Shown one piece after another: positions 1-12,000 of a stretch of 64,000 bases of DNA (the first letter of the stretch is position 1; each line of letters starts with the position of its first letter). This DNA comes from Synechococcus sp. (GTDB taxonomy: Bacteria > Cyanobacteriota > Cyanobacteriia > Thermostichales > PCC-7336). The position numbers were made by a program. Location of the stretch: contig JBFRWN010000142.1 of NCBI GenBank assembly GCA_051439605.1, positions 1-64,000 of the forward strand. The letters run 5' to 3'.

Positions 1-3000
1 GGATCCCATCAAAAAAGTGCTTCCTATGGGGAAGCACTGATATGAACAATTAATCCAGGGATAGAGATTTAACCAATAGAAGGAGCCTCCATTGCAGTAG
101 AGATCGGAATGGCTTCGCCACTTGCCAGTCTCAAGGGGAAATGGTGCGCGTTAGGAGAGTGCATCACCTGCAATCCCATCGTTGCTCGATTAATCAGGTC
201 GGCTTCCGTACCGATGTATCGTCCGCTGCTATCCAAGATTGACCCGTTGAAATTAAACCCGTTCAAGTTGAAGGCCATAGTACCGATGCCCAGAGCGGCA
301 AACCAGATTCCGACAGTCGGTAAGGTCGCCAGCAACATGTGAATTGAGCGCTTGTTTTGGAATCCCAAACCCCGGAACACTATGCGACCGAGATACCCGT
401 AGTGGCCGGCCAACAGATTGTAGGTTTCTTCGTGCTGCCCAAAGCGGTAACCCTCATTTTCCGATACGAGATCGGAGGTTTCGCGGATCAATGACGAGGT
501 CACCAGCGAACCGTGCATGGCTGCTAGGAACGCTCCTCCGAATACACCGGCAACTCCAAGCATTGCAAACGGGTGCATCAGGATATTATGGTCGGCTTGA
601 AACGCCAGCATAAAATGAAACGTACCGGCAATCCCGAGAGGCAGTCCTTCCGAGAAAGACCCTTGGCCTATGGGATAGATCAGTAGAACTGCGATCGCCG
701 CTGCGACCGGTCCCGAGAAGGCCACAGCGATCCACGGGCGCATCCCCAGTCGGTAGGACAACTCCCACTGCCGTCCCAAATAGCAGACAATCCCAATGAG
801 AAAGTGCAGCACAATCAGCTGGTAGGGACCGCCGTTATAGAGCCACTCCTCCAGAGACGTAGCGGCCCAGACGGGATAGAAGTGCAATCCGATCGCCGCA
901 GAGGTGGGCACAACCGCCGCCGTGATGAGATTGTTGCCACCCATGAGGGAACCGATGACAGGTTCGCGAACCCCGTCCATGTCCACTGGCGGCGCACCGA
1001 TAAAGGCCAGGATAAAGCAAATGGAAGCGGCTAGCAGAGTGGGAATCATCAGCAGGCCGAACCAGCCAATGTAAAGCCGGTTTTCGGTACTGGTGACCCA
1101 CTTACAGTAACGATCCCACATGCTGCCGAGCTCAACTGGCCTGACTCGGCGTTTAGAGATAACAGTCATAAAGCAATCACCTCTCTCAGAAGGTCGATGA
1201 TGTTCGGTATCCAGACCGAGTGCTTAGACAAGGTTTCAAAATTCAAATCGCAGGAATTAGAAACCGATCCGTTCTAATTCCCCTCCAGCTCTCGAAGCCG
1301 TTAAACACATTGAGGCAACACAAACGATGCAAACATTTAGAAAATTCGACAAGTTAGAAAATTCGACAAGTCAAAATAGCAAACGCAACCTAAGCATTCG
1401 ATCCCTACAATTCATGGTAACAGAGGCAAACGTCAGCGATAACGACATCTAAATGTACGTTGACAAAAGAAACTTCTCATCGATTCGCGGATAGATAATG
1501 TAACCTAAATTGGTGGCTATACATAGTAGAATGAGAGGAGCATGAATTCATTTTAAATTGACTGCAATGGAGAACAGACCTGAAACGTAGGCCCGTCGGT
1601 CTAAGGTATTTAACGTTCGACAACAGGCAGATTTCTTCTGATTAAGAAATTTATCTTTTGATAAAGCATTTTCTCATTCAGATACCAAGAGAAAATCGTC
1701 TAGAAGTGATTTGCCTGAAATTAGGAATGCTTACGCGAATGATTCTACCTTGACAATCTATCAGTGAGTAATACAGGCAACTCGACTGGGTAAATCGAGA
1801 GAAAAAATATATCTATCACCGCACCAATTCCTGTCATAAATATTGATGTAGACCAGTGCGAGGATTGCTCTGCACCACCCCGAATGCCTAGCTTTTATAA
1901 AATTCAGTTGAAAGCAGCTCGCAAGCTGTGTACTTTAGGCAAACACTGACCTGGAGTTTGAGGCGTTCGCCCGGCGTGGCACCAGGCAATTTCCGTGCAA
2001 TACCGATGATTGGGTCGCGCTATGGAATCGATCGCCCCTCTATTTCGACCTCGAACTGTGGTAGTCATTGGAGCCAGCCGCAATCCCGAGTCGATTCCCG
2101 GATGCCTGTTCGCCAACCTGCATCGATCCTTCTCGGGGGTTGTTTATCCCGTAAATCCAGCAGCTCCTCAAGTCCAGGGGGTTTCTGCCTACCCTTCAGT
2201 GTTGGAGATCTCCGGAGAGATCGACTTGGCCTTTATAGCGGTACCGGCTGACAAAGTCCTGACAGTGGCCCATCAGTGCATCGAGAAGGCGATTCCAGTC
2301 CTAGTCGTTGTCTCGGCTGGATTCTCAGAAACAGGCGAGCTCGGAGCGGCTCGGGAACGAGAGCTTGTGAGGTTGACCCGCTCTGCGGGAGTGCGCCTCC
2401 TCGGTCCCAACTGTGTTGGAGTCTTCAATACCGATCCGGCAGGACCGCTGAAGGGCATTTTTTCTCAGGTGGTAGCCATTCCAGGGAATGTCGCTCTGGG
2501 GGCGCAAAGCGGAGCCTTTGGGCTGGTGATTCCCGGAGCATTGGCGGAGCTGGGAGTAGGGATTTCCAGCTTCGTATCGCTGGGCAATAAGGCAGACATT
2601 ACCGAAAACGATCTGCTCGAGTACTGGCAAGGCGATCGGGCAACTGACTGCATTGCACTGTACCTGGAGTCCTTTCAGGAGCCTCGCAGCTTTCTTAAAA
2701 TCGCCCGCCAGGTGGCTCGCCACAGGCCCGTCGTTGTCTTGAAAGGGGGACGGACTGCTACAGGCAGGCGGGCAGCCAGCAGCCACACAGCAGCTCTGGC
2801 GAATCCGGTTACAGCTGCAGATGCATTGATGGCACAAACGGGGGTTGTACAAACCCACACCATTGAGGAGATGTACGAGGCTGCTGCGTTGCTCGCAACC
2901 CAGCCCGTTCCCTGCGGAGCGAGAGTGGCCGTCATTAGCAACGCGGGGGGACCCGCAGTGTTGTGTTCTGACGTTCTAGAGTCCGAGGGTTTGAGGGTTG

Positions 3001-9000: not shown

Positions 9001-12000
9001 AGCTACCTGACCGAAGCGTATTTTGACTCCCCTATCACTATTGTAGGTTGCGACTTTGGTCGGTGGTTGCAGCGGGATCGAAGCCTTTGATGGCAAGCAA
9101 AACGTTCTATTTTTTGTCAAACTCGATACATTTGGAGCGAATTCGACCAAGATAGGAATCAAGAGACTCAAGGGTCAAAATCGTACTTTGAGGCTCTCTG
9201 CAATCAGTGGGCAATAGCGCTTTCGAGACAAAACCCTCTGTCGAATTTGGAGCCTTCCATATGACGAGACTGAGAACAGATCCTGAGTTTTTTTTAACGC
9301 AAAAGCCATCTTTTAACGAACCGATGCAGACCGAAAGAGAGGTGGAGCGATCGCTGTCCGCAGACACCTCCTTCCGGTTTGCCGATGAGTTTGGACCGGC
9401 TAAGGTGAGCCACATTTACGAACCGCTCACGGGGTTAAAGGCTATTCTCGTCGTGGACAACGTAGCTTGCGGTCCATCCATTGGGGGCATCCGCATGGCA
9501 CCGGACGTCACCACCGAAGAAGTTTTTCGGCTGGCCCGAGCCATGACCCTGAAGAATGCTGCTGCCGGACTTCCCCACGGGGGTGGTAAGGCAGCTATCT
9601 TAGCCGATCCGAAGCTACCGCTATCCGACAAAGAACGGTTAATCCGTACTTTTGCCCGCGCCATTCGGGGCGTCACCGAGTACATTCCCGGCCCCAACAT
9701 GGGCACCGACGAGTGCTGCATGGCCTGGATTCAGGACGAGATTGGTCGCGCGGTCGGGCTGCCTCCAGAACTGGGTGGTATTCCCCTCGACGAGATTGGG
9801 GCAACGGGGTTCGGCCTCAGTATTTCGACAGAGGTCGCCAGCCGGTTTTGCGATCTCGACCTAAAAGGAGCCCGACTGGTGGTGCAGGGGTTCGGCTCGG
9901 TGGGCAAGCATGCTGCCCGCTTTTTACAGGAGAAAGGGGTTGTCCTGGTGGGAGCGGCAGATTCTCAAGGAACGCTGTTCGATCCCCACGGCATCGATCT
10001 CGATCGCCTGATATCGCTCAAACGTGCCGGTAAAAGCGTGGTTGACAGTCCGGCAGGGGAGAAACGCGATCGCGATGCAATTGTCGATATCGAATGCGAT
10101 ATTTGGCTACCGGCAGCCAGGCCCGATGTCATTTCTCAAGACAATGTGGCACGGTTGCAAACCAAGCTGGTGGTTCAGGGGGCAAACATTCCGTTTACGA
10201 CAGCGGCAGAGCGCATCTGTCACGAGAGGAACATTCTCATCGTCCCCGATTTCATTGCCAACGCTGGCGGCGTGATCTGTGCTGCTGTTGAGTATCGAGG
10301 GGGCACTCAAATCCTCGCCTTTCAGACCATTAAAGAGAAAGTTCGCACCAATACCGAACTCGTGTTGGAGAAAGCTGCTCGGACAGGCAAACTGCCCCGG
10401 GAGGTTGCTGTCGACCTTGCCGAACAGCGGGTCCGCACTGCAATGGGTTATCGCCACCCGATCTCTTGTGCCTTTTAAACGAGAGTGGACGTAAAACAAT
10501 CGCTCAAAGACAGAGTTATGCAGGCCATCCTCATCGATCTGGACGGTGTAATTTACCAGGGAGAGGACGTCATTCCTGGGGCTGCAGACACGATTGCCTG
10601 GCTGGCAAAGAACCGGATTCCACACCTGTACCTGACCAATACAACCTCACGTCCGCGCAGCGCCCTAGTGCAGAAGCTAGCTGGCATGGGCATTGCAATC
10701 AAAGAGCAACAAATTCTCACCCCTCCTGTCGCTGCCGCGCGATGGCTCGCCGAACATGCACCCGGTCCTGCTGCCCTGTTCGTGCCCCAGCCGACGCTGT
10801 GTGACTTTGCTTCCCTGACCCCCTTTACCGACGGGGACGATACGGCTCCTGCCAGCATCGTCGTGGGAGATTTGGGGGAAGCCTGGGACTTTGCCACTTT
10901 GAATTGTGCTTTTCGACTGTTGATGGCAAAGCCAGCTCCAGCGTTTGTGGCTTTGGGGATGACACGCTATTGGCGAGCTCCAGATGGCTTGAGACTCGAC
11001 GTTGCGCCCTTTGTGGCAGCCCTCGAGTGTGCCTCGGGGCAGCAGGCAGTTGTACTGGGGAAACCAGCGAAGTCCTTCTTTGAAGCAGCGTTACTTTCCA
11101 TCGGTTCCAGCCCATCCAACACAGTGACAATTGGCGACGATATCGTAGGCGACGTTCGAGGGGCTCAACAGGCTGGATTACAAGGCATCTTAGTTCGCAC
11201 CGGAAAATTTCTGGAAACCGATCTGCCTGGCCCCATCCAACCGGATGCCGTTCTCGATTCAATTGCACACCTGCCTTCGTGGTGGAGGCAGCAAGAAGCC
11301 ACTTAGCCCCGAAACGCGATTGGCACGAATTCTCCTCTAGCACTCATCTCCACGAAAAGCTCATCTTTGCTTGAGATAATAAATAAGGGACCTCTGCGAC
11401 ACTCGTTGGAGGGTGGAGATATGAATACAGCCGAACTGATGGAACAATACACTGCCGGTAAGCGAGATTTCCGGGGAATTGAAATCAGTGAATCCGAACT
11501 GAGCGGGGTGGATTTAAGAGACTCGAAACTTGACCAGTCGGATTTGCACGGTACGACTTTTATTCAGGCAAATTTGGCTGGGGTCAGCCTGAGAGCCGCC
11601 AATCTGAGCAGGGCCAACCTGAGCGAGGCGAACCTCAGAGATACCGATCTGAGAGGCAGCTACCTCAGGGATGCCATCCTGGAAGGAGCCGATCTGAACG
11701 AGGCTGACTTGTCCGATTCGTCTTTAGACGGAGCTGACTTACGAGGTAGCGATCTGGAACTGGCCGACCTGACCAATGCCAGTCTCTGCGATGCCGACCT
11801 CAGTGGAGCCAATTTGAGCGGTTCGATTTTAAATGGTGCAGATTTAATCGGTGTAGATTTACATCACGCTCATCTTGAAGGAGCTTGCTACAACAAAGAC
11901 ACGCGCTTCAATCCAAATTTTAATCCGACTACTGCCGGGCTGAATCGAGCCAACTAGTATTGGGAACAAGACAATCTGCAGGGAGACAGACGGTGGGCTC

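Follow-up and report, generated by a model that had tools for sequence, protein, structure and literature searches.

Why would an oxygenic cyanobacterium carry, next to a gene for a 'rogue' D1 protein, a multi-subunit 2-oxoacid:ferredoxin oxidoreductase (OFOR) and an NDP-forming acyl-CoA synthetase (ACD), when mat cyanobacteria at night ferment glycogen via single-chain PFOR and Pta-AckA, as described in PMC4261827? The question arises from a stretch of 64,000 nucleotides, here called the window, that opens contig JBFRWN010000142.1 of a Synechococcus sp. genome. The analysis indicates that this rare gene set probably lets its host make ATP in the dark from the breakdown products of amino acids, and that the rogue D1 is a neighbour of the module and not a part of it.

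Gene layout and assembly

The locus comprises the following features:

69..1169, minus strand: psbA for a Group 2 ('rogue') D1 with E170, D189, A198, S333, R342 and a Tyr inserted after H252
1170..2021, no strand: divergent spacer between rogue D1 and ACD, 852 bases, AT-rich, 42% GC
2022..4154, plus strand: ACD, an alpha-beta fusion; likely start ATG 2022
4160..5848, plus strand: PF27054 (Ind2-family) NAD(P)-dependent reductase, 5 bases behind ACD
5879..6847, minus strand: OFOR beta subunit (ThDP, [4Fe-4S]) with GEG instead of GDG (E113)
6844..8085, minus strand: OFOR alpha subunit; likely start 8085, longest ORF from 8148
8079..8975, minus strand: OFOR gamma-delta subunit, a fusion carrying two [4Fe-4S] motifs; scores above cut-off for TIGR02175 and TIGR02179
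9207..10478, plus strand: ELFV-family amino-acid dehydrogenase with a non-glutamate pocket, divergent from porGD
10485..11306, plus strand: HAD-IIA phosphatase, 6 bases after the dehydrogenase; TIGR01458 above cut-off

The seven reading frames that a preliminary description had placed here are all intact, with the coordinates and domains it had given, and the HAD phosphatase is probably co-transcribed with the dehydrogenase as part of the same unit. Positions 1-13000 are tiled by Logan contigs of the possible source run at a depth of 34-41 with 30-base overlaps, except that a stretch of 155 bases (1503-1657) has half this depth, 5881-5929 is an unlisted gap and one base, 9992, differs. Contigs from an independent study span the intergenic/ACD, ACD/reductase, reductase/porB, porB/porA and porA/porGD junctions; none of those listed joins D1 coding to ACD coding sequence. 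DNA of the locus is contained in marine sediment runs of four studies, a point in favour of amino-acid fermentation, and D1 and the module are partly represented, at low depth, among contigs of an RNA run (X12), although such contigs give no measure of expression. The contig's umuDC had been counted among its core genes; instead, it sits with SRAP in an accessory zone whose matches are scattered in relatives, and synteny with these is back from about 25.9 kb.

Catalytic features of the encoded enzymes

The ACD combines CoA-binding, ligase and ATP-grasp domains, keeps both phospho-His motifs (H259 and H542, counted from TTG 2010) and is free of the GNAT domain of its 910-aa relatives, which favours a role in amino-acid fermentation. 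It stays below the NCBIfam equivalog cut-offs for the Archaeoglobus acetate-CoA ligase (471 of 1200 bits) and the Nitrosopumilus 4-hydroxybutyrate-CoA ligase (505 of 1300 bits). Compared with the homologue of locus L163, its dN of 0.11 and dS of 0.69 indicate purifying selection.

The OFOR is of the POR/VOR type: it has the gamma and delta parts (two 4Fe-4S) as well as alpha and beta, with the Cys ligands present in beta and the FPITP motif and conserved Arg in alpha. The ThDP/Mg motif GDG of beta is replaced by GEG, and the Asp is found in 98 of the 99 homologues scored (21 of 120 could not be scored by pattern), the single other GEG belonging to the 98%-identical one, a rarity that weighs against amino-acid fermentation. 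GEG is functional in the branched-chain 2-oxoacid dehydrogenase E1. Against amino-acid substrates, alpha and beta both score best with the HMMs of pyruvate synthase (PorA/PorB) and not with those of VOR or IOR, with none at cut-off: alpha scores 396 of 550 for pyruvate synthase, 296 of 646 for VOR, 39 of 651 for IOR and 273 of 500 for oxalate oxidoreductase. In the YPxxP motif, alpha carries the PFOR-type Thr and not the Arg of OOR.

These last features, HMMs and Thr, also speak for plain glycogen fermentation, in which the OFOR would be a second pyruvate oxidoreductase and the ACD would yield acetate and ATP in place of Pta-AckA. Indeed, a frameshift interrupts pta in the assembled genome, a Pta match is found in none of five relatives, and a four-subunit-type POR, which may differ from the clade of the window, is up at low O2 in Nitrospira marina according to 10.1101/2020.07.02.185504. 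However, the genome already has an intact NifJ and two xfp-ackA blocks, and glycogen fermentation leaves the linked non-glutamate dehydrogenase and Ind2-type reductase unexplained. We regard it as rather unlikely. HoxH, also present in the genome, speaks for amino-acid fermentation; a search for PFL found none.

The dehydrogenase had been taken for an amino-acid dehydrogenase, and its pocket (I92, G162, A359) supports one that is not specific for glutamate. The Lys and Ser that bind the gamma-carboxyl group in glutamate dehydrogenase, presumably K89 and S380, are replaced by I92 and A359, and among representatives of at least 55% identity covering the sites the Ile is conserved in 27 of 28 and the Ala in 13 of 15. 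Beside the sister copies lie a gene resembling those of indolepyruvate/phenylpyruvate decarboxylases and one for an aldehyde dehydrogenase, so that, together with the missing glutamate-binding residues, branched or aromatic substrates are favoured. K116 and K128 of the active site are both kept; Asn164 stands where the catalytic Asp, which we take to be D165, is expected. As 109 of the 118 representatives covering this site have Asp, Asn164 is a point against amino-acid fermentation. L187, at 78% identity and with synonymous sites saturated, has the same Asn, and the genome of the window holds an Asp-type paralogue on contig C46.

The assignment of the 562-aa protein to PF27054 is borne out by the match on record (a local Pfam copy gave none) and by an SDR-type fold in residues 1-379 (best Z 14.9, rmsd 3.6, 222 aligned, for a model of pLDDT 75); around the invariant K229, Y215 and H217 the model falls below pLDDT 50. 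Reduction of an aromatic 2-oxoacid by Ind2, as reported in PMC8246080, fits amino-acid fermentation.

Could the module be decaying cargo without a present function? GEG and Asn164 at normally fixed sites, the accessory zone with umuDC and SRAP, and the rarity of the module would suit such a history. However, the module genes contain no stops or frameshifts, related strains in other studies carry them, Asn164 recurs in L187 and Asp51 of beta in the five nearest relatives, and the reductase and ACD have lost 0 and 2 invariant columns, respectively, within the 0-3 lost by 120 homologues. The invariant columns and shared residues lead us to reject general decay for the most part, and we consider it very unlikely.

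Origin, distribution and recurrence

Lateral acquisition, already proposed, is supported by searches of 29 other genomes of the order and 400 others of the class, none of which yielded the module (thus 1 of 401 class genomes), and by a gene GC of 56-61% against 51%. The archaeal best hits, in turn, vanished in larger databases, and an archaeal origin is rejected: within the OFOR clade the archaeal enzymes, at 53-57% identity, branch off separately, and the OFOR of the window nests among enzymes of Planctomycetota, Verrucomicrobiota and Nitrospirales (68-77% identical). The placement of beta among bacteria comes from a quick tree with SH-aLRT support only, a midpoint root and 49 rows, 35 of them chosen from 79 loci, and names no donor. 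POR_N-type matches do occur in three of the 29 other order genomes, as counted before, but they reach only 30-31%, two of them lying in frames of NifJ length and the third in a frame of 492 aa close to the end of a contig. All in all, the module is an accessory set of mixed bacterial origin, in three predicted transcription units, inserted beside a resident rogue D1.

The proposed type of chemistry, from 2-oxoacid via acyl-CoA to acid and ATP, is supported, and parts of the module recur together elsewhere. A Leptolyngbyaceae MAG has the same ACD and OFOR beta (MDJ0705666 and MDJ0705672, six accession numbers apart). A longest contig of 82,831 bases appears among the homologues of each of ACD, OFOR beta and reductase, and one of 307,781 bases among those of ACD and OFOR beta, co-location being deduced from the equal values. 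Within the fetched flanks, 32 of 79 OFOR loci have an ACD-family match, though many of these genes are 34-45% matches and at least one is GNAT-fused, which weighs against amino-acid fermentation. In six of the 79 the dehydrogenase adjoins OFOR; five of these belong to the closest relatives, and the sixth (L124) has the divergent layout of the window. ACD has a dehydrogenase as its neighbour in L166, L167 and L187, and in L163 the start of a reductase. The reductase itself was found in none of the 79, again a point against amino-acid fermentation. A full-length ACD and a reductase match are both missing from the five closest OFOR-bearing genomes, which likewise counts against it and means that the set as a whole is no old unit. 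A contig scan with the reductase as query gave nothing useful, and the plasmids searched held no reductase and only distant PorA.

The rogue D1 and its adjacency

The substitutions D170E, E189D, H198A, E333S and D342R hold in comparison with each of the two full-length standard D1 proteins that the genome encodes. The Mn-cluster ligands at 189, 333 and 342 are thus replaced, Glu stands at 170, and H252 is kept with a one-residue insertion (Tyr) at 253, the kept His and the insertion being Group 2 features according to PMC4408414. The protein is a Group 2 D1, vertically inherited in the genus and predicted not to produce oxygen. It matches published Group 2 (rogue, sentinel) D1 in all defining residues tested but carries Ala at 198, and, different from the published setting, the same genome holds a second Group 2 copy with His198; nifH was not found in the genome. 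The Ala is not unique as a loss, since His198 is absent in 15 of 16 orthologous Group 2 rows; Ser or Gln is known from three strains (PMC4408414 and PMC11304991).

That the D1 and the module are functionally tied, as initially suggested, could not be sustained. Joint regulation of D1 and module as one dark/anoxia locus, transcribed from the divergent spacer between them, would agree with the head-to-head placement of D1 and ACD 852 bases apart, with dark induction of Group 2 D1 in several strains (PMC4408414), with Group 2/3 psbA genes close to sqr in other cyanobacteria (PMC5061849) and with the D1 orthologue in genome G404 lying 450 bases behind a V-type ATPase operon. However, the pairing was met only once: D1 orthologues have other neighbours (module genes in none of seven neighbourhoods inspected), D1 is in none of the 79 OFOR loci, in L163 the 860 bases preceding ACD contain a different ORF, and no shared motif was found upstream. 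Similarity to the upstream region of a congener's D1 is confined to the 27 bases immediately before the D1 start. Co-regulation is hence judged unlikely, and the adjacency is probably due to chance.

Control by FNR was also rejected. A box with one mismatch lies at 9087-9100, but four in the window compare with 2.4 expected and 19 of 100 shuffles were as high; only one of 71 related porGD upstream regions has such a box, and a clear FNR-type Cys cluster is absent by eye in 10 of 11 Crp-family matches. Scans for promoters and terminators gave no more than expected by chance. Putative NtcA-like sites lie near porGD and nifJ.

Proposed function

From the genes, families, catalytic residues, lateral origin and recurrence observed, we infer substrates, direction, timing and the role of the reductase as follows. 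In dark anoxia the module would oxidise the 2-oxoacids of branched-chain and/or aromatic amino acids, a proposal to which we give an even chance. The 2-oxoacids would be supplied by the dehydrogenase of the module if it works with Asn164, or else by the paralogue on C46 or aminotransferases. The OFOR would convert them to acyl-CoA, CO2 and reduced ferredoxin, whose electrons probably leave via the Hox hydrogenase, and the ACD would then use acyl-CoA, ADP and Pi to form acid and ATP, while the Ind2-family enzyme may reduce part of the 2-oxoacid to 2-hydroxyacid and thereby reoxidise NAD(P)H. Substrate and direction are tentative in view of Asn164, GEG and the presence of NifJ, Xfp-AckA and a frameshifted Pta.

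The reactions of OFOR, ACD and dehydrogenase are all reversible, which suits an opposite direction: at low O2 in the light, ACD would activate organic acids from mat fermenters, OFOR would carboxylate the acyl-CoA with photosystem-I ferredoxin and a dehydrogenase would aminate the 2-oxoacid to an amino acid. The OFOR clade is indeed common in autotrophs (Nitrospira, Scalindua, ammonia-oxidising archaea). However, a 2-oxoacid reductase would drain this route, the module has no transporter in the window, and the decarboxylase beside the sister dehydrogenases points in the catabolic direction, so that assimilation appears quite improbable. The oxidative reading can also be extended: several marine-sediment cyanobacteria of at least two distant lineages would share a horizontally spread, self-contained Stickland-like module turning branched or aromatic amino acids into acids, hydroxyacids, H2 and ATP at night, here co-switched with a His198-less rogue D1 that silences photosystem II, the Asn-type dehydrogenase being a non-catalytic amino-acid sensor or having altered chemistry. 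This extension we hold to be highly doubtful.

Comparison with known systems

Among solved structures, alpha and beta are closest to oxalate oxidoreductase (PDB 5c4i), which also has three subunits but YPIRP in place of FPITP, and to four-subunit PFOR (PDB 9bt4), with the loop INIWNDH where the window has ITLGPDH. The three-subunit clade of Nitrospira, Scalindua, Planctomycetota and ammonia-oxidising archaea, for which a literature search found no biochemical study, shares its motifs and the order gamma-delta, alpha, beta (flanking subunits each in 77 of 79 loci), with alpha 53-77% identical; beta of the window belongs to a separate branch of six (SH-aLRT 99), one of whose members is the cluster of a Leptolyngbyaceae protein. 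Ind2, the 3-methylindolepyruvate reductase of indolmycin synthesis, has the same Pfam family and NAD(P)-binding SDR-type fold, whereas the window reductase has no indolmycin genes nearby and its nearest named relatives are Chloroflexota proteins (58-63%).

A multi-subunit OFOR with ACD, for which a literature search leaving most subscription journals outside found no cyanobacterial paper, would add an ATP source to mat cyanobacteria, possibly with amino acids as substrates. From the module, members of three enzyme groups not yet studied could also be expressed, namely the Nitrospira/Planctomycetota three-subunit OFOR, PF27054 outside indolmycin synthesis and the Asn-type dehydrogenase; its rarity and the probably accidental adjacency to D1 limit its wider importance. 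Lyngbya aestuarii ferments by PFOR, Pta, AckA and Hox (PMC4261827); the genome of the window shares NifJ, AckA and HoxH with it and differs in its added OFOR and ACD and in a pta that is frameshifted in the assembly.

Collectively, the module may be regarded, on sequence grounds, as a variant of known amino-acid/2-oxoacid fermentation. Peptide fermentation in Thermococcales (POR/VOR/IOR with ADP-forming ACS; PMC3942289) employs the same enzyme families and the same proposed logic from amino acid to 2-oxoacid, acyl-CoA, acid and ATP, whereas the enzymes of the window come from bacterial clades with gamma-delta and ACD fused, a non-glutamate dehydrogenase stands in place of aminotransferase and GDH, an Ind2-family reductase is added, and the host is an oxygenic phototroph.

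Gene content and integrity of the locus

The seven genes that the preliminary description placed at 69-10478 are all present, intact and as described, with a phosphatase gene alongside:

within 69-10478, minus strand: psbA (D1)
within 69-10478, plus strand: NDP-forming acyl-CoA synthetase (ACD) and a 562-aa Ind2-family reductase, 5 bases between them
within 69-10478, minus strand: 2-oxoacid:ferredoxin oxidoreductase (OFOR) gamma-delta, alpha and beta, with overlapping ends
within 69-10478, plus strand: ELFV-type amino-acid dehydrogenase
starting 6 bases behind the dehydrogenase: HAD-IIA phosphatase

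The strand layout and spacing of the module genes therefore indicate three units and not a single operon. Their GC content is 56-61% against 51.3% for the genome, and among 1,097 crude long ORFs taken from 60 of the 143 contigs these values rank between the 85th and the 99.6th percentile. The region is covered at even depth by a tiling of contigs from the possible source run, and the internal module junctions are bridged by contigs of related strains from an independent study; no independent contig among those listed spans both D1 and ACD. The stretch or part of it occurs in 13 runs from 4 studies, all of marine sediment, and half or more of its words are found in 5 of these runs, the possible source run included. 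At position 9992, three DNA runs carry A for C, and a half-depth contig over 1503-1657 in the possible source run suggests strain variation in the spacer.

A resident D1 and a probably inserted module

All five substitutions claimed for D1 are confirmed, and the insertion after His252 that belongs to Group 2 is also present (Group 2 features as defined in an excerpt of PMC4408414). Since D1 groups with 84-85% identical copies of two congeners (support 97/92), it is inherited and did not arrive with the imported DNA. Of 16 orthologous rows, 15 lack His198, with Ala here, Gln in two and Ser in twelve; its replacement by Ser or Gln had been reported in three strains (PMC4408414, in part), which are assigned to one order (PMC11304991, in part). 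A second Group 2 D1 of this genome retains His198 (G000:C121:15491-16588; L141:7492-8589); both types also occur in the relative G406, and the His198-keeping type in G405. No nifH was found in the genome, which has two rogue D1 forms: the sole full-length NifH-family match has a ChlL-like start and is followed by a chlN-like gene (both names being our reading), so that nitrogenase protection is an unlikely role for D1 here.

Among seven orthologous D1 neighbourhoods, that of G404 contains a V-type ATPase operon, that of G406 dnaE together with urease genes, and the remaining five carB and/or lysC. Between D1 and the urease genes there are 2.5 kb in G406 and 24 kb in the window, where the urease genes are inverted. 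Apart from one 33-base hit, four relatives have nothing that truly matches bases 1205-9370, and synteny returns from about 25.9 kb. Because D1 is inherited, its orthologues have different neighbours, the module DNA is unmatched and synteny then resumes, the module was most likely inserted next to a D1 gene already in place. Co-regulation of D1 and module, a question separate from the metabolic readings, appears improbable.

In G404 the D1 orthologue lies 450 bases behind the ATPase operon on the same strand (L138:11963-19567); the V-ATPase genes of the present genome are on contigs C29 and C120, away from its own D1. The window also holds a mobile-element-like accessory zone at 13146-19525 (umuD, umuC, SRAP peptidase, TPR protein, TPR-S domain protein), two adjoining minus-strand ORFs of 338 and 594 aa with a similar domain in common (20374-23653), and a probably repetitive 1274-aa ORF whose GC and AT skew are strong (38595-42419).

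Active sites and candidate substrates

Both His residues are kept in ACD (the second as identified in an excerpt of PMC3942289), which scores below the cut-off of every named equivalog. OFOR alpha has Thr where the oxalate-type enzyme has Arg, plus a clade-specific loop, and its substrate cannot be read from these sequence features. OFOR beta has GEG in place of the GDG motif, as does only one of 99 scored homologues, a 98%-identical protein; GEG is functional in branched-chain 2-oxoacid dehydrogenase. The model of the reductase shows an SDR fold to which extra domains are added, and Ind2 reduces 3-methylindolepyruvate with NADH (PMC8246080, in part).

Where glutamate enzymes have Lys, Ala and Ser, the dehydrogenase carries Ile, Gly and Ala, three residues that its Asp-type sisters share. 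Its catalytic Asp is replaced by Asn, Asp being found in 109 of the 118 representatives that cover the site. The substitution is old, because it is common to the metagenome locus L187 at saturated synonymous distance. A regulatory role is known for Thermus GdhA. Judged from sequence, the Asn may be tolerated, regulatory or a sign of other chemistry; an excerpt of PMC4079599 mentions a D165N mutant and nothing further. Decay of the module is the least probable reading.

In this genome the sister copies are accompanied by an indolepyruvate/phenylpyruvate decarboxylase-like gene as well as an aldehyde dehydrogenase; elsewhere, the aldehyde dehydrogenase is a neighbour in three congeners and the decarboxylase in G044. 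The genes at G000:C46:58262-62644 (L140:3263-7645) encode, in a row, a 2-oxoacid decarboxylase, an aldehyde dehydrogenase and the Asp-type dehydrogenase, an Ehrlich-like route that is partly conserved in three congeners and in two genomes from a different family.

Metabolic setting

We consider it most likely, at about even odds, that the module serves a dark, anoxic route in which branched or aromatic 2-oxoacids would be converted to acids with a yield of ATP, while reduction of 2-oxoacid to hydroxyacid would act as a redox valve. The genome encodes NifJ, HoxH and two xfp-ackA blocks, with no match to PFL; pta is split in the assembly by a frameshift near 1175 (G000:C51:133-2008), and none of five relatives has a Pta match. 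Conversion of pyruvate to acetate is possible but rather unlikely: the broken pta would make an acetate-forming ACD useful, but with NifJ present a second pyruvate enzyme is less needed. Assimilatory carboxylation by the module is very doubtful.

In this genome, nifJ lies with a dihydroorotate-dehydrogenase-like gene, a 449-aa protein tentatively read as ArcE-like arginine synthetase (no HMM match) and carbamate kinase (G000:C46:166-7254; L144), and a similar pair is found near the OFOR in locus L062. An ~18-kb block that includes xfp, ackA and enolase is present in two copies (contigs C109 and C12, 81-93% DNA identity), either because it was duplicated or because the bin contains a second strain.

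Distribution, recurrence and ancestry

OFOR alpha is found in one of 401 class genomes, its own, and was not found in 29 other order genomes beyond NifJ-type matches at 30-31%. Its nearest relatives are in Verrucomicrobiales, Planctomycetota and Nitrospirales (68-77%), followed by Nitrospira and Scalindua; identity to ammonia-oxidising archaea is 53-57%. ACD is distinct from the 35% long forms carried by most order genomes and from the 37-39% forms found in 47 of 401 phylum genomes, none of which belongs to the class. The ACDs of those 47 small genomes are ~720 aa long and GNAT-less (L260-L270). Strong reductase matches occur in only two other phylum genomes of 401, both outside the class. The dehydrogenase shares a branch with cyanobacterial copies (100/98).

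A Leptolyngbyaceae MAG carries an ACD (65-66%) as well as one protein from the 82% beta cluster, with accession numbers six apart. The longest contig is 82,831 bases for ACD, beta and reductase homologues alike, and 307,781 bases for another ACD and beta pair; from these equal lengths we infer co-location. Among metagenome loci (75 fetched, 10 examined), ACD adjoins the dehydrogenase in L166, L167 and L187 and runs into the reductase in L163. The neighbouring genes in L187 have 62-65% identity to genes of the present genome, which suggests a cyanobacterial host. Across 79 OFOR loci, the dehydrogenase is adjacent in 6 and an ACD-family match lies within the flanks in 32, with reductase, HAD phosphatase and D1 in none; the five closest OFOR genomes have neither a full ACD match nor a reductase match. 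The module is a mosaic retained in more than one cyanobacterial lineage.

In a literature search at the level of listings, no paper described a module of this kind from oxygenic cyanobacteria, and a recent PFOR review names them only for their known PFOR (PMC13768988, in part); excerpts of PMC11032458 and 10.1101/2020.06.28.176255 provide context only. The module had been called archaeal-style, which holds for the logic of the pathway and not for the ancestry of its enzymes: in a beta-subunit tree, OFOR beta belongs to a branch of six members (SH-aLRT 99) within a Planctomycetota/Verrucomicrobiota/Nitrospirales group (97) and well away from the archaeal branch, ACD lies in a nine-row branch (support 100) among bacterial enzymes, and the nearest named relatives of the reductase are proteins of Caldilineae and Anaerolineae, Chloroflexota classes (58-63%).
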